A DNA stretch of 64,000 nucleotides from a bacterium (GTDB lineage: Bacteria; Patescibacteriota; Minisyncoccia; Phycocordibacterales; UBA918): contig JAUIFS010000001.1 of NCBI GenBank assembly GCA_030430425.1, forward strand, positions 5,992 to 69,991. The letters run 5' to 3'. The position numbers and the translations under genes are program-made. The notes under the pieces are model-generated. The model searched no databases, had not been told where the DNA came from, and saw nothing but the letters and a program-made list of their open reading frames with translations. Below, piece by piece: positions 830-61,958 of the stretch; positions within the stretch are counted from its first letter, which is position 1; each line of letters starts with the position of its first letter.

Positions 830-871
830 ATGTCACTAGTATAACAGTCGTTGCGCGTACATCGGTCAGTA

Positions 872-1519: not shown

Positions 1520-1520
1520 A

Positions 1521-1952: not shown

Positions 1953-1992
1953 GCTCTGTGCCGACGCGGGAGAGAAACTGTGCCCAGGCACT

Positions 1993-2021
1993 AAAAACCC
2001 TAGGATTATCCTAGGGTTTTT
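1993..2021. terminator. palindromic hairpin aaaaaccctaggattatcctagggttttt
   Basis: Perfect 10-bp stem flanked by an A-run and a T-run, between gene 2023..2808 and the PrgI-like gene. Confidence 0.5.
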
Positions 2022-2022
2022 A

Positions 2023-2808
2023 TTACTCATCGGTGTAGGTTGGTTTTTCAACCAGTGGCGGTTTCTCTGTAAGCAGATCGTCCTGTGATGCACTACGGAT
2101 AACTTCCTCAGTATGTTCCTGCTGCCCTGCTTCGTCAGGATAGAGGTCACGGTACGCACCATAACCATGTATACGAGAAACATCAGTGGGCATGCTACGC
2201 ATGGGTTGTACGTCTTTATATGCTTCCACTTCACTCGGCAGCTCGTTTGAAAACGTAAGCGGTTGTGCTTCTGGAAGTTCTGCAGAAGGGATTGGTCGTT
2301 CGTTTGATGTTTCTGCTGCGGGTGTTGTGTGTGCTATCGGTATGTTTGTTGGTGCAGGTGCAGTTGGCGCAGTTTGCATAGGAGTTTCTGGTGCGGTCAT
2401 GTCTTCAGGAGTATCTGGCACCTCGTCTGCTTCACCGTGTATTGCTTCTTCACGCAATGCTTTAAAGTTTTGTTGGAGCTCTTGCAGTCCCGAACGGTCC
2501 GGCTCCCCTTCCTTGCGCTCACGGTCTTCAACTGGTTTGAGAAACTCTGAGAGTTCAGAGAGGATGCGTTGTGCCTCATCTGCACTCACCCCTAGTTCTG
2601 ACTGGAGTTTTGCAGGGAGTTCAATCGTTTTATAGATACCGAGGATGGTGTCACCGATAAGGTACGTCAATATGTCTGATTTAGTGGGTGCTTGTGTAGG
2701 ATTAAAAATAGTTTCTAATTTTTGTCCAAGTTCAGGAGAGTTGTACACATCCCAAAGAGTGTCTGAAAGAAGGTGTTTTTTGTTTCTTCGCAGTTCTTCT
2801 AAAGTCAT
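2023..2808 (-). CDS. acidic Pro/Thr/Ala-rich hypothetical protein (261 aa) inside T4SS module
   Basis: Long ORF with a low-complexity acidic C-terminal half (PAPTNIPIAHTTPAAE...). No recognizable family. Confidence 0.5.
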   Translation of the reverse strand: MTLEELRRNKKHLLSDTLWDVYNSPELGQKLETIFNPTQAPTKSDILTYLIGDTILGIYKTIELPAKLQSELGVSADEAQRILSELSEFLKPVEDRERKEGEPDRSGLQELQQNFKALREEAIHGEADEVPDTPEDMTAPETPMQTAPTAPAPTNIPIAHTTPAAETSNERPIPSAELPEAQPLTFSNELPSEVEAYKDVQPMRSMPTDVSRIHGYGAYRDLYPDEAGQQEHTEEVIRSASQDDLLTEKPPLVEKPTYTDE

Positions 2809-2816
2809 ATTGTTTC

Positions 2817-5294
2817 TTATTTACCAAATGATTTACCCCCTGGAGATTTAAGCCAATTGATTATTTCTACTCCCCGCTCAGTTTCTCTGGATGAGGCATT
2901 TGCTGGTAAATTGTTAACATAGTTTTCTAAGTGGGTACGAATATCTTTTTGGGCTGATACGTCAAGTTCTGCAAAAGCTTTTGATTTAATAACTGATTCA
3001 GGTAGTGCTTCAACAAAATCTTTTTCTTTGAAAGCACCTTTTGGCAACTTTGCAATATCTCCTGCCTTTCTTTTCAGAATATTGGCTCTGGTTACCCCAT
3101 CTACTACTCCGCCACGCACCACTTTGAGAACAGCCTTTTCGTGTTCTTGTTTCAGGGTATCTTTATGTGCTTCAACCATCTTTAGTTTGTCGATCTTGTC
3201 TGTGGACAGATGGATTATGTTTTCTTCTTTTTGAAGTTCTTCGAAGCCAACAGCATTAAGCTCATCTGTACTTGCTTTTGCAAAACCTTTTCCAGGTTTT
3301 GCAGCGTCTCCTTTGATATACTTTACGGTTTCTTTTTTGTGTGCTTTTTGAATTTCACCTGTTTCAGTTTCACCAACATCGTCGCTCTTTACAATTGCTT
3401 CAAGCTTAGCAGGGGTTAAGAGGTGGGCATTGTTCATAATAGCTTTACGCCCGTCCTTAGTTTTTGCAATTTGCATAAGTTGTTCAGAAGTTGCGTTTTG
3501 GAATGCTTGTTGACGAGTCGCTTCGTCTGATGAAGACATGTCAGACTGTATCTTTCTTCTTGCAACTGTTGCTGTGTGTTTTTTAGATTCAGCCTTGTCT
3601 GCATCAACACGTTCTTTCCGTGAACCAGCAACACCAAAAGAAGCACTTTCCCCCTTTCCAACAAAAGAACGCATTGCACGTCGTGCGCGAGAGCGAGGTT
3701 TTCCTCGAGCATCATCCCGTGCATCCATCCGTTTCCCTTGCCAATTTGCAGCTTTACCAACGGCAGCACTTGCTCCCCAGCTTGCTCCATATCGAGGTAC
3801 CCACGTTGCTCCATTTCTCATACGACGCAAAGCTCCCTGTGTGGTATTCATAGCAACATTTGCGCCTTGGACACTCATACTTTGTCCAACTTTTGTTGCA
3901 GCGATAAGGAAACCAACTCCAATTGCAAAGAAGAGAAAAATAGTGAAGGTGTCTTTTGTCCATGTTTCACCAATAGAGCTAGCATATTTCCCTGTCCCCA
4001 TTGTCCCTTTTAATTGGATCATAGTGTAGAGACCAATATAGAGCATAAAGATATACGCCGGCGCAAAAAAAGCATAGCCAATAAACTTTTTCCACCACAT
4101 ATCAGAGTACTGCTTGAAACTAGGCAGTACCCACCCAAGGAACATGGCAGGAGAGAAGATCATAAAAATAATCAATGCAATAAACCGAGACACAAGCATG
4201 AGCCCGCCAAATGCGAGTGTCATCCCGAGAATAATGGAGAATAGGAGTACCATAATAGAGAACAATACAACCTGCCCGACTTCTTTCAGCGGATTTCCTG
4301 AAAACCAGCTTGAAATACGCAATGTCTCCATGTATGCAGACGCGATGCTCTTACCGTCAGCTGTGTAGCCTCCCCCGGCGCCTTGCGAGTTTACCGCGTC
4401 ATCTCCATCGAGGGTAACTTCACCTACTTCAAAACCATACGTTCCTTTGATACCTTGCGTTGCAACTGAGTGTATTGCAACTGCAGTATAGTTTGCAACG
4501 TCAACAATAACTTTTGTGAAATAGAGACTGAAGTTGATCAGTAGTGCGGCAACAATCAGCCACCCAAGTGCACGTTGAGTGCCAGTATCATCAGCAGAAA
4601 GGATTGTTTTTAAACCAATCCATACGAGCGAAAAGATGAAAAGAATGTTGAAAAGGTCGCGCACCACTGTCCATAGTGCATTTACGACCGCACCTAAAGA
4701 GCCATTACCTGCACTTTCTGCACAACCTTGTCCTCCATCTTTTACAAACCAACAACCCATTTCGAGTACCACTTTCTGTACCGCAAGGTCAAAAATGCTC
4801 CCACCAAGTGCTATCACCCATCCGCCCATTGCTACAGAAATATTGTATATCTTACTCTCTGTTTCATCGGCATTAACAGCATTTGTTTGTTGTGAGGCAT
4901 GTTCAGCAGCTGCAGCAACTGCGTCAGGGACATCTGCTGAGGTAAGTCCTGTTCCGGTGTCTTGACCCGGGGTAGATGGGTCAGAGGTACCGTCTGAGCC
5001 ACCACTTGTGTCGCCAATTCCTGTGTTGCCGGTACCTCCAAATGCATCAATTTCATCTTGAGTCCCATCGCCTGCTACACCTCCACAAGGGTATGGGTCA
5101 CCAAAGGCGTTATAACAAGTAGATTGTGCCTGCGCCGCCTGTGGTAGTGATAGAAAAAAATAGGAAACAAAAAAGAGACATACAGCAAAAACAACGAATA
5201 TACGCAAAAAGAAGTTCATATGACGCTGCATGAACATACCCATATAGGTCTTATTGTACCCTGTTTTCTGTTGTAAGAAACAGTATCTCCCCAC
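2817..5294 (-). CDS. VirB6/TrbL/PrgH-like polytopic membrane protein (825 aa) with signal peptide, Gly-rich segment and long charged C-terminal tail
   Basis: N-terminal hydrophobic signal (LFFVSYFFLSLPQAAQA), then at least 6 predicted TM helices (e.g. VVLFSIMVLLFSIILGMTLAFGGLMLVSRFIALIIFMIF) and a roughly 350-aa K/R/E-rich tail. It sits immediately upstream of the PrgI-like and VirB4 genes, as prgH does before prgI-prgJ. Confidence 0.5.
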   Translation of the reverse strand: MGRYCFLQQKTGYNKTYMGMFMQRHMNFFLRIFVVFAVCLFFVSYFFLSLPQAAQAQSTCYNAFGDPYPCGGVAGDGTQDEIDAFGGTGNTGIGDTSGGSDGTSDPSTPGQDTGTGLTSADVPDAVAAAAEHASQQTNAVNADETESKIYNISVAMGGWVIALGGSIFDLAVQKVVLEMGCWFVKDGGQGCAESAGNGSLGAVVNALWTVVRDLFNILFIFSLVWIGLKTILSADDTGTQRALGWLIVAALLINFSLYFTKVIVDVANYTAVAIHSVATQGIKGTYGFEVGEVTLDGDDAVNSQGAGGGYTADGKSIASAYMETLRISSWFSGNPLKEVGQVVLFSIMVLLFSIILGMTLAFGGLMLVSRFIALIIFMIFSPAMFLGWVLPSFKQYSDMWWKKFIGYAFFAPAYIFMLYIGLYTMIQLKGTMGTGKYASSIGETWTKDTFTIFLFFAIGVGFLIAATKVGQSMSVQGANVAMNTTQGALRRMRNGATWVPRYGASWGASAAVGKAANWQGKRMDARDDARGKPRSRARRAMRSFVGKGESASFGVAGSRKERVDADKAESKKHTATVARRKIQSDMSSSDEATRQQAFQNATSEQLMQIAKTKDGRKAIMNNAHLLTPAKLEAIVKSDDVGETETGEIQKAHKKETVKYIKGDAAKPGKGFAKASTDELNAVGFEELQKEENIIHLSTDKIDKLKMVEAHKDTLKQEHEKAVLKVVRGGVVDGVTRANILKRKAGDIAKLPKGAFKEKDFVEALPESVIKSKAFAELDVSAQKDIRTHLENYVNNLPANASSRETERGVEIINWLKSPGGKSFGK

Positions 5295-5375
5295 GTTGAC
5301 AGCTTTGTGTATGTGGGTTTATACAAAAGCGGTCACCGATAGGTGGCCGCTTTTGTATATAGGGTATGTAATTTA

Positions 5376-6848
5376 CTAATCGTCGTTGCAAGAGAGCTTT
5401 AAGAGATCAATTTGTTGTTTAAATGTTCCAATCTGTTGGGTAATTTCATAGTCAATGTGTATCTTTAAAAGATCATTTTCTGCAATATCTACCACACGAC
5501 CCCTAGACTTGAGCTTGTTGTACTCATTTATAATACTCGTTTGTTCTTGCGGGTCGGTTGATGCGTCAAAGCGGTTGCGTAGTGCGATAAGTTCGGGGAG
5601 TACTTGCTGTGAGTTCAGCTGTGCCAAAACCGCATTTGCACGTTCGGTACGTAAGCCGTTGGGTACTTCAGGGATAACGCATTTTTGATTGAGCTTTGCA
5701 GTATTGTCTCGATAGGTCACCAAGTCATCTATAAGTGTGACAATCTTTTTTTGCAACGTGATGTGTTTTTGCTCACGCGTAACTGCAGGACCAATTGGGT
5801 TTTCAATGCTTCCCGCTTCGGTTCCTTCGTCTTTAAGACTGTCTAAGAATGATCGCCCGTCACTTCCTTCAAAAGAAGTGTCGGTGTATTCTGAGCTGCC
5901 GAGTCCGAGCAGTCCGTTCATGCCGGTAATTGCTTGTTGCGCAAGTTGTGCAAAGAACGCCCCGATGATCTCATTGATTTCGTCTGCTTCAATAAGTGCA
6001 TCTTGTCCTGCACCGAGTGACTTATTGACTTGGTCAGCAATAACCTGTCCTGGCGTGGTGATATCACAGTCAGTTTGTGCTCCACTTGCAACGTCGGTGT
6101 CGCTACATACTTTGAAGGATAAGAATCCATCTCCCCAGTCAAGTTCTCGTACGGTATTTCCTTCTGCATCAGCAATACGTGCGTACATTTCTTGTTCCGC
6201 AGCAAGGTATGCTCCGGTCGGCGTGTTGATAGGGTTTTGGGTGACTTCAAACCAGTTTTGTGGATTGTAGGAATCCCCCGCGAGGAATCCTTCTATATTG
6301 TCAGCAACTCCACTGAGGGTACATTGTGCTTCGCTGCCAAACCCCTCATGTGTTTCTTCTTGGTAGGTAGTGGCAAGTGCAATTTTTACGTCGAGCTGGA
6401 ATGGACTACATAAGAAGTTAAGTGCAGGATCATTGTATATAAAGTCGCCTACTAGTGCGTCTGCTTGGTCAAGTAAGAACTGCTTGAGGTCGGTCACAAA
6501 CGCAGGACTTCCTTGGAACCCGGAGTTAATCCAGTTGAGGATACTCTGGGTCATGCTCTTGAGAATCATTTTTGCAAGTGCATGTGCAATTGGGTCGAGT
6601 GAAAGTTCTTTTAAAGCTAGAGATGTCTGCAGTCCTGCAATGGTGGTGTTTGCGCCGGCACTAATGGTGTCTTGTACCGTACCGTTACCTCCAATGACAG
6701 TTACTGTATCGCCTGTGCCTAAGAATGCATGTGCTTTCTGTACCTGTGCATCAGGGGTTATGGGTGTAAATCCAACACTGACAAAAACAAGTATGAAGAG
6801 TGAAACTCCGCTTATAGATTTTTTTAAAAAAGAACGTGGATATTTCAT
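5376..6848 (-). CDS. secreted hypothetical protein (490 aa) with N-terminal signal peptide
   Basis: MKYPRSFLKKSISGVSLFILVFVSVGF... signal-like N-terminus; no recognizable domain. Co-oriented with the T4SS module. Confidence 0.6.
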   Translation of the reverse strand: MKYPRSFLKKSISGVSLFILVFVSVGFTPITPDAQVQKAHAFLGTGDTVTVIGGNGTVQDTISAGANTTIAGLQTSLALKELSLDPIAHALAKMILKSMTQSILNWINSGFQGSPAFVTDLKQFLLDQADALVGDFIYNDPALNFLCSPFQLDVKIALATTYQEETHEGFGSEAQCTLSGVADNIEGFLAGDSYNPQNWFEVTQNPINTPTGAYLAAEQEMYARIADAEGNTVRELDWGDGFLSFKVCSDTDVASGAQTDCDITTPGQVIADQVNKSLGAGQDALIEADEINEIIGAFFAQLAQQAITGMNGLLGLGSSEYTDTSFEGSDGRSFLDSLKDEGTEAGSIENPIGPAVTREQKHITLQKKIVTLIDDLVTYRDNTAKLNQKCVIPEVPNGLRTERANAVLAQLNSQQVLPELIALRNRFDASTDPQEQTSIINEYNKLKSRGRVVDIAENDLLKIHIDYEITQQIGTFKQQIDLLKLSCNDD

Positions 6849-6859
6849 ACGCAGAAGTA

Positions 6860-7660
6860 CTAATTGTTTTCGTTAATACTGATAACACTATAGACAACCG
6901 AGTTGGCGTTCCAGGTGATACCTTGGGTAACTAGTGTTGCATAGAGTCCGTTAAGCGATACAAGCAGGCCGGTAGCATCATCTTGATAGCGTTTGAGTCG
7001 CAGCAGTGCGAGCATGGGGTCGGAAAAGGCATTACGCATAGCAGTGATGTCCGAAAGAATTGCTTGGTAACTGTTGAGTAGTGCAAGGTGTTCTTGCACC
7101 ATGCTGCTTGGTACTGAAAGGTTTTTTGTGGTGTCTACATACTGCGAGTATGCGTCGATCTTTGCATCGAGTTTTTTAAGATCATCACCATTTTGGGAGC
7201 GCAGTGCTTGCACAAGAATGTCTGTTTCTGATTGTGTGCCGTCTTCAGAATATGAAACGACAATAGATGCGATCGCTTCTCCGTATGCGGCTAATGCCTC
7301 AGGAGAATTGTTGGTGGTGATTACAATGTCTGCAGGGGTAAAAAGTGTGTCAGTAGCTTCCTGTGCAAGTGTGTCTGCAGCATTGGCAACAAGTTCATCA
7401 GGCGCGGTGCCGAATGCTCCATAGTTTTCAGAGCGTACAATATCTTGGAAGAAGTCGAGCGCAAATTGTTCGGTTACGGTCTCAGGAGGTACGTAGTCTG
7501 CACCGGGTTCACCTGTTATTGCAAGTGGCTCAGTAATCTGCAACGCTTCCTGCCAATCAGGAACACCGTCCCCATTTTGATCTAGTTCGGGGAGTGCTCT
7601 TCGTTCAGGTGCGAAGAAAAAGTGCACCGGAGATAAGGACTGCGGTAAAAAGTAAAGCAA
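6860..7660 (-). CDS. hypothetical protein (266 aa); possible N-terminal signal anchor encoded in another frame upstream (7606..7688)
   Basis: Track ORF starts at TTG. An ATG at 7688 opens MSASQKRISLALLFTAVLISGALFLRT* in the +1 frame across a T5 run, suggesting a frameshift or sequencing error. Confidence 0.5.
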   Translation of the reverse strand: MLYFLPQSLSPVHFFFAPERRALPELDQNGDGVPDWQEALQITEPLAITGEPGADYVPPETVTEQFALDFFQDIVRSENYGAFGTAPDELVANAADTLAQEATDTLFTPADIVITTNNSPEALAAYGEAIASIVVSYSEDGTQSETDILVQALRSQNGDDLKKLDAKIDAYSQYVDTTKNLSVPSSMVQEHLALLNSYQAILSDITAMRNAFSDPMLALLRLKRYQDDATGLLVSLNGLYATLVTQGITWNANSVVYSVISINENN

Positions 7661-13410: not shown

Positions 13411-14928
13411 TTATACACGAACCCTATACTGTAATGCCTCATATACATGAGGTGGTTGTATATCGTTTGAGTTGTCTAAATCAGCTATCGTCCGAGCAAC
13501 TTTAATAACCCGATGGTAGCTCCGCGGAGAGAGGTTGAGTTTCTCGCTACTCGTGCGGAGGATGTGCTGTACTTCACCGCTGAGCGTGATAGTTTCCTCA
13601 ATGTCACGTGCTGAAAGTTCAGCGTTTGTATACGTGCCACGTTTTTCTCCTCGTGCACGCATCATGTTTCTTGCGCTTTTGATTTGTTCTCGTGCACGCG
13701 CAGTCTCTCCAGTATTTGTTGTGGTAGTAGTGAGCGTGTCGTAGTCAACATGCGGTACTTCAAGCCAGAGGTCAATACGGTCAAGAATTGGTCCAGAGAT
13801 TTTGCCTTTGTATGTTTCAAGCATGGCGCTCGCAAAGTCGGTAGTCCCATCCTCACTCCCCCGATAGGGATTCATTGCTGCAATGAGAATAAAGTCTGCA
13901 GGAAACAGCGCGGTCCCTTGTACGCGAGAGATAGACACGACGCGGTCTTCAAGCGGTTGCCGCAGTGCATCAATACTCCGTCGTTCAAACTCAGGGAATT
14001 CATCGACAAACAATACTCCCTTGTGCGCAAGTGTGACTTCCCCCGGGCGAGGGTGCGCGCCACCGCCGACCAATGAAGTGTGACTTGCGGTGTGGTGTGG
14101 TGCACGAAACGGAGGCTGCGCGGAGACATTATTTTCATATACCCCCGCAACGGAATGAATTGCGGTAACCTCGAGTGCTTCCTCTCGTGATAGTGGCGGA
14201 AGTATTCCCTGAAAGGCACGCGCGAGCATCGTCTTCCCTGTCCCCGGAGGACCAACCATGATGACATTGTGTCTGCCTGCCGCAGCAATAAGAAGACCTC
14301 GCTTTGCAGCCTCTTGTCCTTTAATGTCTTCCAGTCGTGTAAGTCCGTCATGCCACTGCTCTTCCATGTGTGTGAGCTCTTGAACTGGCAGACAGCAGTG
14401 TTTTTCTTCATCTTTAGTTATATGGTGTACAACGTCCATAAGCGTACGTGCTGGGTAGATGGTTATGCCTGCAACAAGTGCTGCCTCCTGTGCATTGTCT
14501 TTAGGAACAATAACTTCGCTATAGCCGTGTTCTTTTGCTGCTTGCACAATAGCAAGTACTCCCCGCACTCCGCGTAGGTGCCCATTGAGAGAAAGCTCTC
14601 CCACATACATGCGCGAAACGTCAGTGGTGGACACTTCCTCTGCTGCGATGAGGTACGCAATGGCAATAGGGAGGTCGAACAGAGGTCCTTCTTTTTTAAG
14701 GTCAGCAGGCGCAAGTGAAATAGTTATTTTATGGTTCTTACTTTTTGGAGATGGAAAACCACTATTTTTTATCGCCGCACTGACACGGTCTTTTGCTTCT
14801 TCAATTGCTTTTCCAGGAAGTCCCACAATGGAAAATGAATGCAGACCTCGGGTGAGGTCTGCTTCAATAGTTACCGGTACACCTCCGGTAACAGTTCCTT
14901 GTGCAGTGTGTGTGGTTGCGACTGCCAT
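13411..14928 (-). CDS. comM: YifB/ComM family Mg-chelatase-like AAA+ ATPase
   Basis: Lon-like N-terminal domain, Walker A VIMVGPPGTGKTMLARA, and the C-terminal ComM helix-hairpin region; 505 aa. Confidence 0.9.
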   Translation of the reverse strand: MAVATTHTAQGTVTGGVPVTIEADLTRGLHSFSIVGLPGKAIEEAKDRVSAAIKNSGFPSPKSKNHKITISLAPADLKKEGPLFDLPIAIAYLIAAEEVSTTDVSRMYVGELSLNGHLRGVRGVLAIVQAAKEHGYSEVIVPKDNAQEAALVAGITIYPARTLMDVVHHITKDEEKHCCLPVQELTHMEEQWHDGLTRLEDIKGQEAAKRGLLIAAAGRHNVIMVGPPGTGKTMLARAFQGILPPLSREEALEVTAIHSVAGVYENNVSAQPPFRAPHHTASHTSLVGGGAHPRPGEVTLAHKGVLFVDEFPEFERRSIDALRQPLEDRVVSISRVQGTALFPADFILIAAMNPYRGSEDGTTDFASAMLETYKGKISGPILDRIDLWLEVPHVDYDTLTTTTTNTGETARAREQIKSARNMMRARGEKRGTYTNAELSARDIEETITLSGEVQHILRTSSEKLNLSPRSYHRVIKVARTIADLDNSNDIQPPHVYEALQYRVRV

Positions 14929-52809: not shown

Positions 52810-54315
52810 TTACTCTTTTGTTTCTTCCTCAGCCTCCTCTGCAATCGCTTCACCTTCTGCTTCAGTCTCTTCGGCAGCAGCTTCTTTTTTAGCTTCTTCT
52901 TCTACTTCAGCCATAAGCTCTTCTGCTTCCTCGGGAGTATCAACCTCATCGATTTCCTGCACTTGCTCTTCGTCAGTGAGGTCACGATCTTCTGTCGCTT
53001 CATCTTCTTCCGGAAGTTCTGGTTTTGTGGTGGTTGCGTCTTCGTTCTCGAGTACGTCTGCATCAGCACCAGCTTCGGTAGTTACTGGAGCGATGATTTC
53101 TGACTTTCCATCAGCGTCTGCTTCAGCAAGACCTTCACCTACATGGGAGATAATATCAATCTTCCAACCGGTTAGTTTTGCTGCAAGTCGTACGTTTTGT
53201 CCACCACGACCAATCGCAAGTGATTGCTGGTCAGGCGCGACTTCAACGATAGCGTGCCCACGGTTGTCTTCCCCGTCTTCGTCATCAGTTGGTTCAGACT
53301 CGATAGTTACTGAGAGTACCTGCGCTGGTGAAAGCGCATCCTCGATAAATTCAATTGGGTCTTCTGACCACTCGATGATGTCGATTTTCTCGCCACCAAG
53401 CTCGCTCATGACGGTTGAAACACGTACACCACGTTGTCCTACTAGAGAACCAACAGGGTCAATGTGTTCATCGTGTGCAAATACGGCAACTTTTGAACGA
53501 GCACCAGCTTCACGTGCAATTGCTTTGATCTCTACAATGCCGTTTTGCAGTTCGGGTGTTTCAATCGCAAACAGCCCTTCAAGGAAGTCAGCGTGCGCGC
53601 GTGAGAGTTTTAGGAAAATGCCGCGTGCGGTTTCATCCACCTTCAGGAGTGAAGCACGGATGCGCTCTCCAGGGCGGAATCGTTCTCCAGGAATCTGTTC
53701 ATCATAGGGCATAACTGCAGTGACGCGTCCAAGATCTACATAGAGGTTTCCGCGTTCAAAACGTTGCACGTGTCCAAGGATGATATCTCCTTCTTTTTGT
53801 CCAAACTCAGCGAGTGCTGATTCTTTTTCAGCTTCACGAATTTTCTGAATAATAACCTGCTTAGCAGTCTGTGCTGCGATGCGCCCAAAGTCGTCCTTGC
53901 TTTCAAGGGGGAAGACAAGTTCTTCTCCGAGCTCAACATCTTTTTTGATGAGACGTGCACTATCGATCATGATGTGCTTTTCAGGGTCAAACCGAACCTT
54001 GCCGTCATCGTCTGCCTCTTCTTCTTGCTTTTCAGGAGCGCCTGCAGGAAGTGGCTTTTCTTCAACCTCTTCGTCAGTTTCTTCAGGCTCAGGCTTGAGC
54101 ATTGATTCATCTACGGCAATTTTTATCTGATTGAAAATTGTCGTTCCCGTTGCAATATCAAATTCTGTGCGGATGATTTGTCCACGCTTTCCGTATTCTT
54201 TCTTGTATGCAGTAGCAAGTGCTTGCTCGATAGCATCCATCATTTTCTCGCGTGAAATACCGCGTTCTTCTTCCATTTCTCCGAGTACGGAGTTGATTAC
54301 CTTTAGATCAAACAT
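52810..54315 (-). CDS. nusA: transcription termination/antitermination factor NusA with acidic insertion and long acidic C-terminal tail
   Basis: N-terminal domain MFDLKVINSVLGEMEEERGISREKMMDAIEQALATAYKK; S1 and two KH domains (GRGGQNVRLAAKLTGWKIDI). The tail is an E/A/D-rich run of about 90 aa. Confidence 0.9.
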   Translation of the reverse strand: MFDLKVINSVLGEMEEERGISREKMMDAIEQALATAYKKEYGKRGQIIRTEFDIATGTTIFNQIKIAVDESMLKPEPEETDEEVEEKPLPAGAPEKQEEEADDDGKVRFDPEKHIMIDSARLIKKDVELGEELVFPLESKDDFGRIAAQTAKQVIIQKIREAEKESALAEFGQKEGDIILGHVQRFERGNLYVDLGRVTAVMPYDEQIPGERFRPGERIRASLLKVDETARGIFLKLSRAHADFLEGLFAIETPELQNGIVEIKAIAREAGARSKVAVFAHDEHIDPVGSLVGQRGVRVSTVMSELGGEKIDIIEWSEDPIEFIEDALSPAQVLSVTIESEPTDDEDGEDNRGHAIVEVAPDQQSLAIGRGGQNVRLAAKLTGWKIDIISHVGEGLAEADADGKSEIIAPVTTEAGADADVLENEDATTTKPELPEEDEATEDRDLTDEEQVQEIDEVDTPEEAEELMAEVEEEAKKEAAAEETEAEGEAIAEEAEEETKE

Positions 54316-54567
54316 ATATAAATATCGTGTATGTATAGGGTATTCCCCTTAGTTGTAATACGTCTGGCTTTATAAAAAAGAAAACCGACCGCAGAGGTCG
54401 ATATCAGACACACATATAGTATATCTCTGAGGGAGAACTGTCAATTGAATGAGAAAACCCTTGTTTCTAGGTGTAGAAGAATATAAATAATTGACAAATA
54501 GTATAATACATGCTATTATAATAAATAGTACTGCTTTCACCTGGGGGTCATTTTTTGGAGAAGACCA

Positions 54568-54804
54568 ATGAAAGCATCGCACAAGAACACCAAAAAGACA
54601 CTGTCGATCTTTGGCGCAATCAGCAGCGTGCTGATTATTGCCTTCGGCATCTACCTGTATATGAGCTATAACGCCAATGCAGGTACGCCAACAGTGTCAA
54701 AAACGGAATCGTCAGCGCCACTGACGTCCGTGCGGCCAATGCCGCGCCCAGAAGCACGTGCACGCGCCTTCCGCGCACAGCAACTGATTCTGGAAAACAA
54801 ATAA
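54568..54804 (+). CDS. small membrane protein (78 aa)
   Basis: SD ggagaag upstream; one TM (LSIFGAISSVLIIAFGIYLYM); basic/Pro-rich tail. Confidence 0.45.
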   Translation: MKASHKNTKKTLSIFGAISSVLIIAFGIYLYMSYNANAGTPTVSKTESSAPLTSVRPMPRPEARARAFRAQQLILENK

Positions 54805-54915
54805 GCAAAGCAGCGCTTTGCAAAAACGCCCGAGCATAAGCTCTGGGCGTTTTTACGTAGATACTGCAACATACACTGTATAACTAAACGGTTTGCAGTG
54901 CCAAGGGAGGGTATA

Positions 54916-56721
54916 ATGAGACACAAGAACACACGGGATGTTTGTTTGTTCTACTGTTTTTTATATATGCGTATACAAGATGAACAACTAAAGCGCTTTG
55001 TTTCAGACGCGGGGCTCGTACCCAAAAAGGACCTTGAAGCTGCACAAAAAGTAGCAAAGGAAGAAAAAAGAACGCTTGCTGAAGCACTTATTGCGGGAGG
55101 GTATCTTACTGAAGACGACCTTCGTCGTGTGGAGTCGTATGTGTTGGGGATTCCGTTTGTGTCACTTAAGGAAGAAAAGATCGACTTTGAGATTCTCTCA
55201 CTCATCCCCGAACCCGTCGCACGAAACCACAATATTATCGCGTTTAAAAAGAATGACGCGTCGCTCGAGGTTGCCATGCTTGACACCGCTGACTTGCCTG
55301 CAATCGATTTTGTAAAGAAAAAAGTAGGACTGAAAATTCTCCCGCGCCTGACCGACACTGAGTCGATGCGTTTTGCGCTCCAGCAGTACCAAAAAACACT
55401 GAAGGATGAGTTTGGTGACATTATCGCTAAAGAGTCCTCTGCTTTGAAAATAATTACAGAAGAAGGGGGAGAGGAAGTTAGTGAAGCTGACCTTAAGAAA
55501 ATGGCAGAAGACCTCCCGGTGGTGCGTATTGTGGACACGCTTTTACGACACGCGATTATCCAAGGCGCATCTGATATTCATATTGAACCAATGGAAGAGC
55601 AATTACTCGTTCGGTATCGTATTGACGGTATTTTGCATGATGCGATGACACTGCCGAAACATGCATCATCGACTATTGCGGCACGCCTGAAGGTGCTTTC
55701 AAGCTTAAAGCTCGATGAAAAGCGTCTCCCGCAGGACGGTCGCTTTAAAATGGAAATGGACGGACAAAAAGTATCGTTTCGTGTGTCGGTACTTCCTATT
55801 TTTTACGGTGAAAAGATCGTCATGCGTCTGTTGCGTGAAAACCGTTCAGGATTCTCATTGGAAGGTATTGGGTTCCATGGGAGTACGCATGAGCGGATTC
55901 AGAGTGCGATGAAGCAAACTACAGGAATCATTCTCGTGACTGGTCCAACAGGTTCAGGTAAAACAACAACCTTGTACACTATTCTCGATCTGCTTAATAC
56001 GCCAGAGGTAAACGTTTCAACTATTGAAGACCCGATTGAGTATCAAATGCCCCGTATCAATCAGACACAGGTAAAGTCTGAAATTGGCTTTACCTTCTCA
56101 GCTGGGTTGCGATCACTCATGCGTCAGGACCCTGACATTATTATGGTGGGAGAGATCCGTGACCAAGAAACCGCAAGTCTTGCGATCAACGCTGCACTTA
56201 CCGGACACCTTGTGCTTGCAACCGTACACACCAACTCAGCTGCAGGAACGATTGCGCGACTTGTTGACATGGGCGTGGAGTCATTTTTGATGGTTTCTAC
56301 GTTGCGTGTTGCAATTGGTCAACGACTAGTACGCCGCATAAAGGAAGATGCACGTGAGCCATATACACTTACCTCGAACGAAAAATCAGAACTTTCAAAA
56401 CATGCTGATCTTGATCGAGTACTCGAAACGCTCAAAGAAGAAAATATTATAAAATCAAACGCTACGTGGAACAGCGTGCCATTTTATCATGCGGTACCAG
56501 ATGCATCTGGGGAAGAAGTCTATAAAGGACGCATGGGGATCCATGAGGTGTTGCCGGTATCTACTACTATGAAAGACATGGTGATGTCGAGTGCCACTGC
56601 AGATCAGATTGAGGAACAAGCGCGAAAAGAAGGAATGCTTACCATGCTTGAGGATGGTATTTACAAAGCTGCACGCGGGATGACTACCATCGAAGAGGTA
56701 CTTCGGGTTATTAATGAATAA
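54916..56721 (+). CDS. pilB: type IV pilus assembly ATPase PilB (GspE family)
   Basis: SD gggaggg 6 nt upstream of ATG 54916. N-terminal GSPII-E domain; Walker A GPTGSGKTTT; Asp and His boxes; tetra-Cys region absent or degenerate. Confidence 0.9.
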   Translation: MRHKNTRDVCLFYCFLYMRIQDEQLKRFVSDAGLVPKKDLEAAQKVAKEEKRTLAEALIAGGYLTEDDLRRVESYVLGIPFVSLKEEKIDFEILSLIPEPVARNHNIIAFKKNDASLEVAMLDTADLPAIDFVKKKVGLKILPRLTDTESMRFALQQYQKTLKDEFGDIIAKESSALKIITEEGGEEVSEADLKKMAEDLPVVRIVDTLLRHAIIQGASDIHIEPMEEQLLVRYRIDGILHDAMTLPKHASSTIAARLKVLSSLKLDEKRLPQDGRFKMEMDGQKVSFRVSVLPIFYGEKIVMRLLRENRSGFSLEGIGFHGSTHERIQSAMKQTTGIILVTGPTGSGKTTTLYTILDLLNTPEVNVSTIEDPIEYQMPRINQTQVKSEIGFTFSAGLRSLMRQDPDIIMVGEIRDQETASLAINAALTGHLVLATVHTNSAAGTIARLVDMGVESFLMVSTLRVAIGQRLVRRIKEDAREPYTLTSNEKSELSKHADLDRVLETLKEENIIKSNATWNSVPFYHAVPDASGEEVYKGRMGIHEVLPVSTTMKDMVMSSATADQIEEQARKEGMLTMLEDGIYKAARGMTTIEEVLRVINE

Positions 56722-57958
56722 GTCTCTGCACATGCCTACATTTACGTACACAGGGGAAGATAAAGACGGAACAGCGATAACACAAACAGTCGAGGCAGCA
56801 GATCGTTTTGCAGTGTATGAGATTGCACGTGTTGCGGGGCACACGGTACACAACATCGGTGCACAGAAGAAAATCAATATACAGCAGTTGCTCAATGTAG
56901 AGAAAATAGAATATGCACTGAGTCGAGTGAAGCAAGATGAATTGGTGATGATGACGCGCAACCTCGGGTCTATGCTCGTTGCCGGACTGCCACTTTCTCG
57001 CGCACTTTCAGTGATCGAGCGTCAGAGTAAAAACCCAAAACTAAAAGGAGTTATTACAGACGTTGCTGAACGTATTAATACAGGTGAAGGGTTTCACGAA
57101 GCTATTGGACGGTATCCAAAGATTTTTAGTGATCTCTACGTCGCCATGGTGCGCGCAGGAGAAGAGAGTGGGAAAATGGCTGAAGCGCTCCACACACTGA
57201 GTATCCAAATGGAACGCTCATCTTCTTTGAAGAAAAAAATTAAGGGTGCAATGATCTATCCTGCAATTGTTATTACTATCCTGGTCATCATTGGGGTGTT
57301 GATGATGATCTTTGTAATGCCGTCAATCACTGACACGTTTAAAAAACTTGATGTTGATTTGCCGATGACAACACAAATACTTATCCAGGTGAGTGATTTT
57401 ATGAGCCAAAATGCAGTACTTACTATTTTAGGAATGATCGGGTTTGTAGTGGGTTTCATTTTCGCACTGCGCAGCGGTCCAGGGAAGAAGATTGCGTCTT
57501 GGGTGATTCCGAAGCTTCCTATTATTGGGAATATGGCAAAGGAGACAAACGCAGCGCGAACTGCACGCACGCTTTCCTCGCTTCTTTCTTCAGGGGTGGA
57601 TGTTATTCGTTCTCTGAATATTACTGAAGAGGTGGTGCAAAATTATTATTATAAAAAAATTATTGCTGATGCTGCAAAACGTGTCGAAAAAGGAACCGCA
57701 CTGTCAGAAATATTTATTGAACGTGATGATTTATATCCGGTTCTCGTAGGGGAGATGATTCTCGTAGGGGAAGAGACAGGTAATATTGCAAAAATGCTTG
57801 AGGAACTTGCGGTGTTTTATGAGACAGAGGTGGAACAGAAAACGAAAGATCTTTCAACTATTATTGAACCACTGCTTATGGTTGTCATTGGGGGAACGGT
57901 AGGTTTCTTTGCGTTGGCAATGATTGCACCAATTTACTCAATTAGTGACAGTATCTAG
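56714..57958 (+). CDS. pilC: type IV pilus inner-membrane platform protein PilC (GspF family)
   Basis: Overlaps the pilB stop by 8 nt; two GspF repeats each followed by TM helices; 414 aa. Confidence 0.9.
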   Translation: MNKSLHMPTFTYTGEDKDGTAITQTVEAADRFAVYEIARVAGHTVHNIGAQKKINIQQLLNVEKIEYALSRVKQDELVMMTRNLGSMLVAGLPLSRALSVIERQSKNPKLKGVITDVAERINTGEGFHEAIGRYPKIFSDLYVAMVRAGEESGKMAEALHTLSIQMERSSSLKKKIKGAMIYPAIVITILVIIGVLMMIFVMPSITDTFKKLDVDLPMTTQILIQVSDFMSQNAVLTILGMIGFVVGFIFALRSGPGKKIASWVIPKLPIIGNMAKETNAARTARTLSSLLSSGVDVIRSLNITEEVVQNYYYKKIIADAAKRVEKGTALSEIFIERDDLYPVLVGEMILVGEETGNIAKMLEELAVFYETEVEQKTKDLSTIIEPLLMVVIGGTVGFFALAMIAPIYSISDSI

Positions 57959-57968
57959 TATTTAGTTT

Positions 57969-59753
57969 ATGCATGTACGCACAAAACAGGTAGCGCAAAA
58001 TACGAAGTATTTTGCGCTACCTGTTTTTAGAAGGGGGTATACATTTATTGAATTACTGGTGACTATTGCAATTTTTACACTTGTATTTACGGCATTATTT
58101 GCAGGTGTACAAGCTTCACTTTCACTCGTGGGGACTTCTAAGGCACAAGCGGGGGCTTTAGCACTTATGGTTGATCGAATGGAGTACTTACGATCACTTC
58201 CGTACAACGATCTTGGGACTATCTCAGGCGTACCAGCCGGATCAATTCCTCAAAATCGTACTGTTTCGATAAACGGCATTGAGTATACAGAGCGTGTTTT
58301 AGTACAGTATGTTGATGATGATGCCGATGGTGTCGGCGGCGCAGATAGCAATGGAATTCTTGCTGATTACAAACAAGTCAAAATTGAATATTCGTGGACG
58401 GTGGGTGGAAAATCAAACAGCGCTGCACTTGTTTCAAATATGATCCCTACTGGGATTGAGACAACTGCAGGTGGCGGAACTATCCGTGTAAATGTGTTTG
58501 ATGCGGGAGTACTTCCAGTTGTTGGTGCGTCGGTACGTTTTGTAAATAATTCATTGAGTAGTCCTATTGATACCACACGATACACCGATCCTACGGGAGT
58601 TGCGTATCTTTCAGGTGCTCCCGCCGGTGCTGATTACGAGATTACCGTTACTGATACCAATTACTCAACAGACGGAACGCATACGGCAACAACGTCAAAT
58701 CCAAACCCAACCACACCACCTGTTGCAGTACTTGAAAGCCAGGTTTCAACGATGAACTTTCAGATCGACGAACTGAGTGATTTGCGTATAAAAACAGTTG
58801 CACCTGCAACATTCGGTTCATATACAGACACGTTTACTGATACAACAGGTCTCTATACGCAAGCAAGCACTACCGTTGGCGGCGGAAGTCTCATGTTAGC
58901 TGCTGATGCAGGAGTATATCGACCATACGGTGTTACGGTAAGTGCAAGTACCACACCAGGAACTATTGCTGCTTGGTATATGCTCGATTTTTCAGCTACC
59001 ACCTCAGCGTCAACGTCAGTTGCAGTGTCTGTGTTGTATGACAATGGGGGAACCATGCAGCATGTTCCCGATGGAGACTTGCCAGGGAACAGTGCGGGGT
59101 TTACATCTGCGCCAGTGGATCTTTCAGCGCTTGATGTTTCTACCTACGACACACTTGGTATACAGGCAACATTAGAGACAATTGACGGAGCGTACACCCC
59201 TGAGATATATGATTGGGAGCTTCGTCATATTGTTTCACAAAGTCCAATCTCTGGAGTGGCAATGGAAATAAGTGGCAGTAAAAGTATTGGAACCGATGGC
59301 GCAGCACAGCCAGTATTAAAATACAGTGACACCGGAACTACTGATGGTTCAGGAGAATGGGACCAACCCAACATCGAATATGATCTGTATGATATTGCAG
59401 TGGTCAGTGCTGGATACGATGTCTATGAAGTATGTCCAGTTGTACCGTATGCTCTGGACCCTGGTGTATCAGAAGAGATCTTGTTTATATTGGGAGCAGC
59501 TGCAGGAAATATGCTTCGCGTGCATGTAACTGAAACTGATGGTACGCCAATTCCTAACGCAACGGTGCGTCTTGAAAATACGGGGGTGGATGAACTGTCA
59601 GTGACTTCTTTGTGTGGACAAGCGTACTTTAGTAGTGGTTTGTATGCAGATAGTAACTATACACTCACTACGTCGGCTGCAGGATTTACTACTGACGTAT
59701 CTACGGGGGTAGAAGTGACCAGTAGCAGTACGGTAACCGTTATACTTAACTAA
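57969..59753 (+). CDS. large type IV pilin-like protein (594 aa) with class III leader and Thr/Ser/Gly-rich beta-rich body
   Basis: Prepilin signature RRG-YTFIELLVTIAIFTLVF (Gly-1, Glu+5) followed by about 550 aa. Confidence 0.7.
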   Translation: MHVRTKQVAQNTKYFALPVFRRGYTFIELLVTIAIFTLVFTALFAGVQASLSLVGTSKAQAGALALMVDRMEYLRSLPYNDLGTISGVPAGSIPQNRTVSINGIEYTERVLVQYVDDDADGVGGADSNGILADYKQVKIEYSWTVGGKSNSAALVSNMIPTGIETTAGGGTIRVNVFDAGVLPVVGASVRFVNNSLSSPIDTTRYTDPTGVAYLSGAPAGADYEITVTDTNYSTDGTHTATTSNPNPTTPPVAVLESQVSTMNFQIDELSDLRIKTVAPATFGSYTDTFTDTTGLYTQASTTVGGGSLMLAADAGVYRPYGVTVSASTTPGTIAAWYMLDFSATTSASTSVAVSVLYDNGGTMQHVPDGDLPGNSAGFTSAPVDLSALDVSTYDTLGIQATLETIDGAYTPEIYDWELRHIVSQSPISGVAMEISGSKSIGTDGAAQPVLKYSDTGTTDGSGEWDQPNIEYDLYDIAVVSAGYDVYEVCPVVPYALDPGVSEEILFILGAAAGNMLRVHVTETDGTPIPNATVRLENTGVDELSVTSLCGQAYFSSGLYADSNYTLTTSAAGFTTDVSTGVEVTSSSTVTVILN

Positions 59754-59755
59754 GT

Positions 59756-60358
59756 ATGCAAAAAAAATGTATACCACAAAAAGGAATGACCTTAGTTGAG
59801 GTAATTATTGTCTCGACACTTTTTTCACTCATCATGTTTGCTGTCGGAGAAAGTATTGCAACCATGTATCGCTCTAATGCGTATACAATTGCACAGTCAT
59901 TTCAAGTGCAGCATGCACGGAAAGGCGTCCAGGCCTTGGTGCGCGATATTCGTGAAATGACGTATGCTGACGACGGCACGTTTCCACTTGCAGATATGCA
60001 AGAGCATCGCATCGGATTTTATAGTGACATTGATCGAGACAGTAGTGTTGAGTATGTTGAGTATGAGCTTGCAACAAACACCCTGAGTAAACGTGTTTAC
60101 AATGCCACAGGATCACCCGCAACGTATGACACTTCTGCATCTGATGAGACATATATACTTTCAGAGTATGTACAAAATCAGGACTATGGCACATCAACAT
60201 TTTACTACTTTGATGAAAATGGAAATGAAGCAACTGCAACTTCTACCGTAACTGATATCCGTTTTATCCGCGTGCAATCTATTATCAACATCGATCCTAT
60301 TCGTGATCCAGGACAATTTATGTTGCGCAGTAGCGCGTCGTTGCGTAATGTTAACTAA
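59756..60358 (+). CDS. type IV pilin / pseudopilin (200 aa)
   Basis: KG-MTLVEVIIVSTLFSLIMFAV prepilin N-terminus with Glu+5. Confidence 0.7.
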   Translation: MQKKCIPQKGMTLVEVIIVSTLFSLIMFAVGESIATMYRSNAYTIAQSFQVQHARKGVQALVRDIREMTYADDGTFPLADMQEHRIGFYSDIDRDSSVEYVEYELATNTLSKRVYNATGSPATYDTSASDETYILSEYVQNQDYGTSTFYYFDENGNEATATSTVTDIRFIRVQSIINIDPIRDPGQFMLRSSASLRNVN

Positions 60359-60368
60359 TACATAAGCT

Positions 60369-61778
60369 ATGAGTACTTTTCAATCTAATGCACAAAAAGG
60401 AACACTGTTGGTATTGGTGCTTGTGTTTGGAGCAGTATTTTTCGTAATGGCAGCAAGTTTTCTTAATTATTTTGTATCACAATCAGAATTACAAAAGTCT
60501 AAATACCAACTCGGGCAAGCGCGTGAGATAGCTGAAGCTGGACTTAATTATTACAAATGGTACTTAGCACATTATCCAGACGACGTAACTCATGGCACCG
60601 GCGTACCAGGTCCGTATACGCTTCCATACGATGATCCGGAGCTAGGAACTATAGGTGAATACTCACTTGAGATTGCCAGTAGTACCTTTTGTGGGCAGGT
60701 GAGTTCTATTGAAATCACATCAACAGGTCACACGTATGAGAATCCAAACATGGCACAAACTATTTATGCTCGCTATGCACGTCCTACCGTTGCAGAGTAT
60801 GCGTACATCATTAACTCAAATGTATGGGCAGGTGCTGACCGAACGATTATTGGTCCGTATCATTCAAACGGCGGTGTGCGTATGGACGGGACAAACAATT
60901 CCACGGTAACGTCTGGACAGGCAACCTGGAACTGCACGAGTTCGTTTGGCTGTAGTCCCTCCGATGCAAATGCTGATGGGGTTGTAGGGAGTGGTCCGAA
61001 CTTTGATTTGTGGACGTTCCCATCAACACCGATTAACTTCACGGGACTCACTGTTGATCTTGCACTCATGCGTGATCGTGCAGAAAACGGTGGTGGTATC
61101 TACATTCCACCATCTGGTGATTATGGGTATCGTGTGACTTTTGAAAGTGATGGGGATGTAGTTGTTCGTGTAGTAGATCGTACATGGAGCCACTACGAGT
61201 ATTCATCTGATGATGGTTGGTATGTTGCACGAAATCTCATTCGTGACGATGATCCTTATGCAACCTATACGCTTAATGAAGCGTGCCCACTCATTTTTGT
61301 TGAAGACAAAGTATGGCTTGAAGGTGAGGTGCCAGGGAAGGTTACGATTGCTGCGGCAGATACTGATACGCCGGGAAATGATTTTTCAATAATTCTGCAC
61401 GATAATATTACCTATGCCACTGCCAGTTCAGGATTGCTTGCAATCGCTGAAGAAGATGTTCTGGTGGGTTACGATGTGCCGAACAATATGGAGCTCAATG
61501 GTATCTTTATTGCGCAAAACGGTAAATTTGGAAGGAATCGTTACACTTCCTCAGTAAATGGTGGTGATCGGTGTCGTAATTCGTTAACTATTCATGGCAC
61601 AATAGTATCTAATGGTCGCGTTGGTACGAAGTGGTCTGGTTCAGGATGTGGTGGATACAACTCAGGCTTTGATATTCGCTATAACTCATATGATAGAGAC
61701 CTTGTGAATGATCCACCGCCACTTGCGCCGCACACCTCGGACGATTTTCGATTTATTGAATGGAGGGAGATGTATTAA
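60369..61778 (+). CDS. minor-pilin-like protein lacking Glu+5 (469 aa)
   Basis: KG-TLLVLVLVFGAVFFVMAA hydrophobic N-terminus (PilX/GspK-like, no E5) followed by a large Gly/Asn/Thr-rich domain. Confidence 0.55.
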   Translation: MSTFQSNAQKGTLLVLVLVFGAVFFVMAASFLNYFVSQSELQKSKYQLGQAREIAEAGLNYYKWYLAHYPDDVTHGTGVPGPYTLPYDDPELGTIGEYSLEIASSTFCGQVSSIEITSTGHTYENPNMAQTIYARYARPTVAEYAYIINSNVWAGADRTIIGPYHSNGGVRMDGTNNSTVTSGQATWNCTSSFGCSPSDANADGVVGSGPNFDLWTFPSTPINFTGLTVDLALMRDRAENGGGIYIPPSGDYGYRVTFESDGDVVVRVVDRTWSHYEYSSDDGWYVARNLIRDDDPYATYTLNEACPLIFVEDKVWLEGEVPGKVTIAAADTDTPGNDFSIILHDNITYATASSGLLAIAEEDVLVGYDVPNNMELNGIFIAQNGKFGRNRYTSSVNGGDRCRNSLTIHGTIVSNGRVGTKWSGSGCGGYNSGFDIRYNSYDRDLVNDPPPLAPHTSDDFRFIEWREMY

Positions 61779-61958
61779 TATACATCTCCCCCCTGATTGC
61801 TACGAGAGTCGCAATGGTCGATCTGGGTCCTCATTTGAAGCAGGATGAGTTGGAGGGAGTGCACGAGATACAAAAGTACAGAAAAGAACACGATGTAATA
61901 ACGTCGTGTTCTTTTCCCATGATACAATCAATCTATTAGAAATAGCATTGATTGCAGC

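Follow-up and report, generated by a model that had tools for sequence, protein, structure and literature searches.

What are the large pilin-like proteins encoded directly behind the assembly genes pilB and pilC in some Patescibacteria, and what place would they take in a type IV filament? We addressed this question for a locus of an ultrasmall, Kaiserbacteria-like bacterium, in a 64-kb stretch of contig JAUIFS010000001.1 (assembly GCA_030430425.1, positions 5,992 to 69,991 of the forward strand), called the window below, in which the locus occupies the + strand within 54898..61778. An earlier reading of the same DNA, the original prediction, had described a type IV filament operon in which pilB and pilC are accompanied by three pilin-like open reading frames (ORFs) of 594, 200 and 469 amino acids (aa), and our analysis confirmed this layout. 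The three products, here named ORF594, ORF200 and ORF469, probably constitute a minor-pilin set of the I-(J)-K type and with it the tip complex of a type IV filament. They look like neither giant major pilins nor three independent giant pilins, but like an ordered set that caps and primes filaments. The operon comprises the following genes, with Glu5 denoting the glutamate at position +5 of the mature pilin.

pilB, ORF 54898..56721 with a probable start at 54967, + strand: PilB/GspE-type assembly ATPase with an MshEN N-terminal domain
pilC, 56714..57958, + strand: polytopic PilC/GspF-type platform protein
ORF594, 57969..59753, + strand: modular pilin of 594 aa, probably minor
ORF200, 59756..60358, + strand: plain Glu5 pilin of 200 aa, probably minor
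ORF469, 60369..61778, + strand: Glu5-less putative cap pilin of the ComZ / solenoid-PilX type, 469 aa

The pilB and pilC genes overlap by 8 bp, and the subsequent gaps, to ORF594, ORF200 and ORF469, measure 10, 2 and 10 bp. PilB matches the Pfam families T2SSE (E = 1.3e-121) and MshEN (E = 3e-12) and scores 525.7 bits with the NCBIfam PilB model TIGR02538 and 519.9 bits with the GspE model TIGR02533, both below the equivalog cutoffs. The pilB ORF lies where the original prediction had put it, but its start is probably ATG 54967 and not the ATG at 54916 proposed there, because the TIGR02538 alignment opens at residue 31 of the ORF and homologues align from there. PilC contains two Pfam T2SSF domains (E = 8e-58) and is matched by the GspF, PilC and ComGB models, every one below its cutoff, with almost equal scores for PilC and GspF.

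Conserved prepilin leaders

All three proteins begin with the class III prepilin leaders originally reported. The leader of ORF594 has 23 aa and ends in VFRRG/YTFIELLV (the slash marks the boundary between residues −1 and +1), that of ORF200 has 10 aa (PQKG/MTLVEVII) and that of ORF469 spans aa 1–11 (AQKG/TLLVLVLV). Glycine precedes the boundary in each case, and ORF594 and ORF200 have Glu5; ORF469 keeps the leader, Gly−1 and the hydrophobic stretch, with leucine at +5. These motifs are family traits and not chance. Relatives of ORF594 have Gly−1 in 65/65 and Glu5 in 66/66 cases, and relatives of ORF200 have glycine or alanine at −1 and invariably Glu5, both in the family sample (58/58) and in a diverse set (98/98). 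In the ORF469 family Gly−1 occurs in 60 of 62 members, position +5 is leucine, valine or isoleucine in all 62, and glutamate is found there in none (0/62). The Gly−1/Glu5 context on which the pilin assignment depends is thus real and conserved.

Consistent with these motifs, ORF594 (23.0 bits) and ORF200 (23.6 bits) pass the Pfam N_methyl cutoff of 21.2 bits as well as TIGR02532, whereas no pilin hidden Markov model (HMM) matches ORF469, because its residue +5 is leucine. The 23-aa leader of ORF594 exceeds the leader of about 11 aa in the family consensus; we looked for an alternative in-frame start that would shorten it and found none. We infer that all three proteins are processed by a prepilin peptidase. 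The hallmark of the type IV pilin superfamily, a long N-terminal α-helix packed on an antiparallel β-sheet (the 'lollipop' fold), is present in the models of ORF594 and ORF469.

An ordinary pilin is 120–160 aa long. The two largest of the three pilin-like proteins had been put at 5–10 times that size, which has to be corrected to about 3–4 times. The richness in threonine, serine, glycine and asparagine that had been noted is real: these residues make up 34.8% of ORF594, 27.5% of ORF200 and 32.4% of ORF469, versus 20.6% in a reference of 15 housekeeping proteins of the window. Lysine accounts for 1.5–2.5% of the three proteins, versus 6.2% in the same reference, and all three have an isoelectric point (pI) of 4.1–4.7.

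The predicted fold of ORF469 resembles that of ComZ

The structural model of ORF469 has the topology of a GspK-like pilin domain with a bulky domain inserted in its sheet, in keeping with the earlier suggestion that this Glu5-less protein is GspK/PilX-like. The inserted domain is modelled as a triangular β-solenoid resembling ice-binding proteins, and the whole divides as follows.

up to aa 68, behind the leader (aa 1–11): α1 helix
aa 83–137: four-strand pilin sheet
about aa 141–455 (nucleotides (nt) 60789–61733): β-solenoid
aa 461–468: terminal strand

The joining of an ice-binding-like solenoid to a GspK-like pilin domain characterizes ComZ of Thermus thermophilus, in which a triangular solenoid is inserted before the last strand of the pilin domain (PMC6561018). 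The order of helix, four strands, solenoid and last strand in ORF469 matches the published ComZ topology as far as order alone is compared, and a structural alignment with ComZ (PDB 6QVI) gives 18% identity; ORF469 is the shorter of the two, with 469 aa versus 518 residues in the ComZ chain. A profile of 62 ORF469 family members run against all PDB sequences returned nothing at E ≤ 10, so the likeness to ComZ is not accompanied by detectable sequence homology. ORF469 itself matches no Pfam or NCBIfam family, including NF037980 (T2SS_GspK) and PilX_N; PilX_N matches only 3 of the 62 family members, with a best E of 1e-4, and scans of each member of the ORF469 and ORF200 families against Pfam gave no T2SSJ, PilW or ice-binding family. 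Sources that name members of the ORF469 family call them hypothetical proteins.

ORF469 also resembles GspK in being the last subunit of its set and in lacking Glu5 while keeping Gly−1 (QRG/VALLIVL in GspK of E. coli K-12), but the insert of GspK is an α-domain and that of ORF469 a predicted β-solenoid. From this modelled architecture, ORF469 would be a cap pilin of the ComZ / solenoid-PilX type. Four of its cysteines are invariant in the family (C108, C189, C195 and C306) and two of ORF594 nearly so (C489 and C549), which fits an extracytoplasmic location of both proteins.

ORF594 is a modular pilin with a GspI-like module

The model of ORF594 (predicted local distance difference test score, pLDDT, 89.1) shows a helix at residues 26–75, a small four-strand sheet at 96–158 and a low-confidence linker at 164–167, beyond which four β-rich domains extend to the C terminus. 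The pilin part is superposable on GspI in its small pilin fold. Its predicted parts are the following.

Pilin module, aa 24–165, nt 58038–58463, + strand: Glu5-bearing α1 helix and small GspI-like fold
D1, aa 168–258
D2, aa 259–428: jelly-roll/CBM-like
D3, aa 429–512
D4, aa 513–594

Two CarboxypepD_reg domains are found among the β-modules, and the models indicate adhesin-like modules of transthyretin/CnaB-like and jelly-roll/CBM-like folds. Structure searches matched, over 114–122 aligned residues, sugar-binding jelly-rolls (Fbs1 and CBM61) and phage tail proteins, matches that would belong to the central domain of about 170 aa. Sequence matches of the family, weak and below threshold, agree with the GspI-like fold (of 67 members, 17 matched gspI, 10 XpsI and 5 PilV). 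ORF594 passes neither the curated PilV model nor the gspI model TIGR01707, for which it scores 18.3 bits where 44.35 are required.

With a pilin module, a linker and non-pilin modules, ORF594 fits the definition of modular pilins by Raynaud et al. 2021 (PMC8179133), whose survey of monoderms and diderms counted over 1,200 of them with 264 architectures, some from the candidate phyla radiation (CPR). Giant pilins had been proposed as a hallmark of CPR bacteria, a claim that does not survive this survey, as large modular pilins occur widely among bacteria. Of the 80 related loci described below, three (L028:6469-9384, L045:6432-9362 and L074:6446-9382) have a longer ORF594 orthologue of about 950–970 aa, which consists of the 594-aa core followed by a Gly/Ser/Thr linker, a DUF2341 domain and a Laminin_G_3/Pentaxin module, a ConA-like lectin. 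Such addition of modules is as expected of a carrier displayed at the tip.

We also considered ORF594 as a sortase-type pilin or TIE protein and rejected this: the likeness, with TM-scores of 0.1–0.2, is confined to the appended, generic β-sandwich modules, and the N terminus is that of a bona fide prepilin.

ORF200 is a candidate GspJ-like subunit

Matches of ORF200 to curated class-specific models are below threshold, spread over several pilin classes and located mainly in the N-terminal 60–70 residues. Among 98 relatives, ComGE matched 73, gspJ 58, ComGF 52, PRK10557 50, gspI 43, ComGD 38, gspH 28, ComGC 24, gspG 22 and gspK 4; ORF200 itself scores 14.9 bits with the gspJ model TIGR01711, whose cutoff is 64.85. 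With about 190 aa in its mature form and with Glu5, ORF200 is within the size range of GspJ and PilW (about 190–270 aa), and the Joint Genome Institute (JGI) names some of its homologues PulJ or PilW.

The locus is conserved among Patescibacteria

When one genome was scanned for each species, 171 related loci came to light, of which 80 (L001–L080) were kept after ranking by their ORF469 match. The order nusA (on the opposite strand), pilB, pilC, ORF594, ORF200, ORF469, tpiA and pgk is identical in 80/80 of these Patescibacteria loci as far as the contigs reach, and the operon is also carried by the complete genome CP060229.1. Median identity to the proteins of the window is 79% for PilB (69 related loci), 75% for NusA and 67% for PilC, followed by ORF469 (58%), ORF200 and TpiA (51% each), Pgk (50%) and ORF594 (44%). 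The surface-exposed ORF469 thus outranks the glycolytic enzymes TpiA and Pgk, with a median that the ranking of loci by ORF469 match inflates somewhat.

Homologues of each of the three proteins number in the hundreds to thousands, are near-constant in length and come from metagenome bins of Kaiserbacteria, Paceibacterota and other Patescibacteria. ORF469 has 2,093 database matches, the top 120 of which are 448–525 aa long; ORF594 has 551, mostly of about 570–600 aa; and ORF200 has 668. A broad profile-HMM search for ORF200 in a library of 1.84 billion proteins brought this family to 822 representatives at E ≤ 1e-10. Some bins with a Patescibacteria-type locus are titled Acidimicrobiales, Patiriisocius, Azotimanducaceae or 'uncultured Candidatus Saccharibacteria' (L003, L005, L019 and many of L004–L080); these divergent labels look like taxonomic mislabels or mis-binned contigs.

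A proposed three-subunit filament tip

We infer that ORF594, ORF200 and ORF469 assemble as a heterotrimer located at the filament tip. In the proposed sequence, ORF469 would be the first subunit incorporated, its bulky β-solenoid capping the filament as has been proposed for ComZ and cyanobacterial PilX; because it lacks Glu5, it would have no N terminus of an overlying subunit to neutralize and would need no such subunit. ORF594, by its GspI-like module, and ORF200, which is probably GspJ-like, would pack below ORF469 through their Glu5-bearing α1 helices, and the string of β-sandwich and jelly-roll domains of ORF594 would jut from the tip and serve as an arm for ligand binding. A major pilin, presumably encoded elsewhere, would next be polymerized beneath the tip complex by PilB and PilC. 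Outside the cell, the modules displayed at the tip may bind DNA or a conserved glycan or surface. The predicted jelly-roll and the lectin modules of ORF594 suggest glycan binding.

By analogy, the closest functional counterparts are ComZ with its partner PilA2, the core sets of cyanobacteria that include a solenoid PilX, and PilABC of Streptococcus sanguinis. ComZ binds PilA2 and DNA and has been assigned to the pilus tip on steric grounds (PMC6561018). It differs from the present case in that the CPR bacterium is presumed to be without outer membrane and secretin, and in that the putative GspI-like partner ORF594, unlike PilA2, carries about 430 aa of extra modules.

The set shares with the GspI–GspJ–GspK and PilV–PilW–PilX cores, which prime assembly and come to lie at the filament tip, the arrangement of three adjacent genes in what is probably I-J-K order, here placed right after the ATPase and platform genes. 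It departs from them in that the operon has neither a GspH/FimU-like fourth member nor a major (pseudo)pilin, in the modular build of its I-like subunit, and in that the curated GspI, GspJ and GspK models score the operon proteins below cutoff or not at all.

In cyanobacteria, all PilX homologues carry the same solenoid, proposed to be a tip plug that replaces PilY1, and belong to PilX–PilV–PilW–FimT sets (bioRxiv 10.64898/2026.02.12.705559). As in the order predicted for ORF469, the ice-binding-like solenoid of these proteins precedes the last strand, but the core of the cyanobacterial sets numbers four minor pilins and the present set three. Saccharibacteria encode PilX1 and PilX2, large proteins with atypical signal peptides that are proposed to be tip proteins (PMC11623550). 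Cyanobacterial PilX1-3/HpsA-like proteins and the PilX1 and PilX2 of TM7x thus resemble the proteins described here as PilX-class pilins with a bulky apical domain and a proposed role as tip plug or adhesin; the TM7x proteins share the atypical signal peptides but have jelly-roll and β-propeller modules and no solenoid.

The monoderm S. sanguinis has the three-pilin tip set PilABC, in which one subunit is without Glu5 and two are modular and adhesive, and which has been called a "rudimentary HIJK" (PMC9934059). It is alike in being a three-minor-pilin operon in a cell without outer membrane, which for the CPR bacterium is presumed, with one Glu5-less subunit and with modules displayed at the tip, here as a proposal, and the ConA-like lectin module of its PilC recurs in the three long ORF594 orthologues. 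The Glu5-less subunit of S. sanguinis is, however, the small GspI-like PilA, whereas in the present set the large solenoid pilin lacks Glu5 and the GspI-like protein has it; the modules are vWA and lectin in S. sanguinis, and predicted transthyretin-like, jelly-roll and solenoid domains here.

Several observations weigh against an I-(J)-K tip complex. Profile searches with the ORF594 and ORF200 families against PDB sequences matched the N-terminal helix alone (geopilin and PilA), and the ORF200 profile broadened to 822 representatives still reached only pilin N termini. Local hhalign comparisons with GspG, GspH, GspI, GspJ and GspK of E. coli K-12 (NC_000913.3), run with whole profiles and with profiles lacking the helix, likewise gave nothing past the helix, which means that pilin class is not assignable by sequence. 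ORF200 is probably of the J class, as judged from its middle position, its size and its sub-threshold N-terminal matches. In the window we found neither a major pilin nor a GspH/FimU-like fourth subunit, and no PilT, PilM/N/O or prepilin peptidase either, PilB and PilC being the only components of the pilus machine seen there. Finally, the acidic, lysine-poor composition of the three proteins does not favour DNA binding, though ComZ is likewise without obvious positive patches.

Alternative ligands and filament architectures

The earlier suggestion of tip proteins that may bind DNA is a reasonable one by analogy, because ComZ binds DNA (PMC6561018). It is conceivable, if on balance doubtful, that the tip complex serves as a DNA receptor in transformation or nucleotide scavenging, with ORF469 as a functional equivalent of ComZ; such a role would be compatible with the I-(J)-K tip complex. 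The likeness to ComZ suggests DNA as a ligand, and the high conservation of ORF469 would suit a ligand that is universal; its family also has invariant or near-invariant arginines (R158, R171, R389, R417, R437 and R443), and a ComM/YifB-type gene is present in the same window. The solenoid of ORF469, however, is net acidic (20 Lys and Arg versus 39 Asp and Glu; pI of the whole protein 4.5), and it has no sequence-level homology to ComZ. Nor does the fold imply DNA binding, as the solenoid PilX proteins of cyanobacteria, for which a role as plug has been proposed, are found in sets for motility as well as in sets for competence. ComM genes, moreover, are common, and the one in the window is unlinked to the operon.

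A second question is whether the three pilins are the tip of a longer filament at all. Type IV pilus genes are reported to be nearly universal across Patescibacteria, and the major pilins of TM7x are encoded at separate loci (PMC11623550). Of the type IVa set of PilB, PilC, PilD, PilM/N/O, PilT and a major pilin, the window contains PilB and PilC alone. A Pfam scan of its otherwise unassigned ORFs gave no PilD, PilM, PilT or secretin family match, and GspC, GspL and GspM were equally without match among the ORFs scanned, which are part of those in the window. The locus also falls short of a type II secretion system (T2SS), with GspE and GspF models below cutoff and no GspG-like major pseudopilin in the window. 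The major pilin and the remaining machinery, if present, would be encoded elsewhere in the genome.

The window holds no other Gly-x4-Glu (Glu5) prepilin, and the 10 kb flanking each of the 80 related loci on both sides contain neither a further Glu5 prepilin nor a pilB or pilT paralogue. The three pilins are therefore not simply extras beside a major pilin, and one may ask whether PilB, PilC and the three pilins are the entire system. We regard this as unlikely. ORF200 would then be the repeating subunit of a short T2SS-/Com-like pseudopilus, with ORF469 and ORF594 as its cap and no major pilin besides, an arrangement with which several findings agree: relatives of ORF200 match Com pseudopilus models most (the ComGE, ComGF and ComGD counts given above), PilB/GspE and PilC/GspF model scores are nearly equal, and the locus is fixed among housekeeping genes. 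But major pilins often lie apart from minor-pilin operons, as in TM7x, which makes absence within 10 kb a weak argument, and the near-universal occurrence of type IV pilus genes in Patescibacteria means that other loci probably exist. ORF200, at about 190 aa mature, is also larger than typical major (pseudo)pilins, and only 22 of its 98 relatives are matched by gspG and 24 by ComGC.

In a further form of this idea, which we consider distinctly unlikely, the five-gene block beside nusA and tpiA–pgk would be a complete minimal filament machine without major pilin or retraction ATPase, making a short "tip-only" pseudopilus. If so, the cell would depend on the conserved solenoid head for uptake or attachment, DNA scavenging being one example, which would explain a pilin more conserved than glycolytic enzymes.

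The least probable reading is the strict adhesin one, in which the large proteins, displayed on pili, would be adhesins of the kind expected in episymbiotic CPR bacteria, would attach to a specific host cell that they recognize, and would evolve in specificity together with that host. The modules of ORF594 do resemble adhesin stalks (CnaB/transthyretin-like) and sugar-binding jelly-rolls, some orthologues add the ConA-like lectin, and identity in this protein is lowest in the C-terminal two thirds, at 40–59% versus 56–79%. PilX2 of TM7x, moreover, is required for efficient host binding (PMC11623550). This reading presumes, however, that Kaiserbacteria-like organisms are episymbiotic, and modular pilins are not CPR-specific. 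The lengths of the three proteins are near constant across hundreds of homologues, unlike those of diversifying adhesins, and host-specific attachment sits poorly with ORF469 being one of the best-conserved genes in the locus, above TpiA and Pgk even if its rank is somewhat biased. As judged from sequence comparison, this conservation argues for a structural role of ORF469 as plug or primer, or for a conserved ligand, rather than for host-specific attachment.

Flanking regions and other genes of the window

The operon is bordered by a divergent gene upstream and by glycolytic genes downstream.

nusA, 52810..54315, − strand: upstream of and divergent from pilB
Intergenic region between nusA and pilB, 54316..54966, + strand: divergent region with a sigma-70-like site at 54491–54519
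tpiA, from 61959, + strand: followed by pgk, after a 180-bp gap behind ORF469

The sigma-70-like site consists of TTGACA, a 17-nt spacer and TATTAT with an extended TG, agreeing at 11 of 12 positions, as a match to consensus only. Downstream of this site, between nusA and pilB, sits a 78-aa ORF (54568–54804) with one hydrophobic segment; we rejected it as a member of the system, as it has no homologue in the 80 loci and no Pfam match. On the other side, tpiA and pgk follow ORF469 on the same strand in every related locus that reaches past ORF469, and a consensus scan of the + strand of the gap (61779–61958) gave no terminator-like hairpin. The pilus genes may be co-transcribed with tpiA–pgk.

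The ComM/YifB-type gene of the window lies at 13411–14928 on the minus strand and encodes a Mg-chelatase-like AAA+ protein (ChlI, Mg_chelatase and Mg_chelatase_C domains). In other bacteria, proteins of this family function in the recombination that accompanies natural transformation. At the start of the window (1–7660, minus strand), a truncated ORF with a sub-threshold match to TraC_F_IV (VirB4/TraC-like) is followed by large ORFs of 215, 261, 825, 490 and 266 aa with hydrophobic N termini. None of these large ORFs matches a Pfam family above its cutoff, and one of them has a match below it; the row may represent an apparatus like those of conjugation or type IV secretion, or another surface apparatus.

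Discussion

The kind of system represented by this operon is already known, in the core minor-pilin tip complex, in modular pilins and in the ComZ-type solenoid cap, and no new kind of machine is revealed. What is new is the placement, by predicted fold, of a large family of more than 2,000 members without curated match in the ComZ / solenoid-PilX class, a set pared down to three genes, whose I-like subunit is modular, and a locus fixed among housekeeping genes across a Kaiserbacteria/Paceibacteria-like clade. A solenoid-capped tip would now be represented in Thermus, cyanobacteria and the CPR, which supports the idea that such a cap takes the place of PilY1-type plugs in many lineages. Type IV filaments of these organisms, which are unable to make many building blocks, are thought to serve attachment, motility or DNA uptake. 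For the Kaiserbacteria/Paceibacteria-like clade, the proposed I-(J)-K set gives a concrete, testable model of the tip of such a filament.

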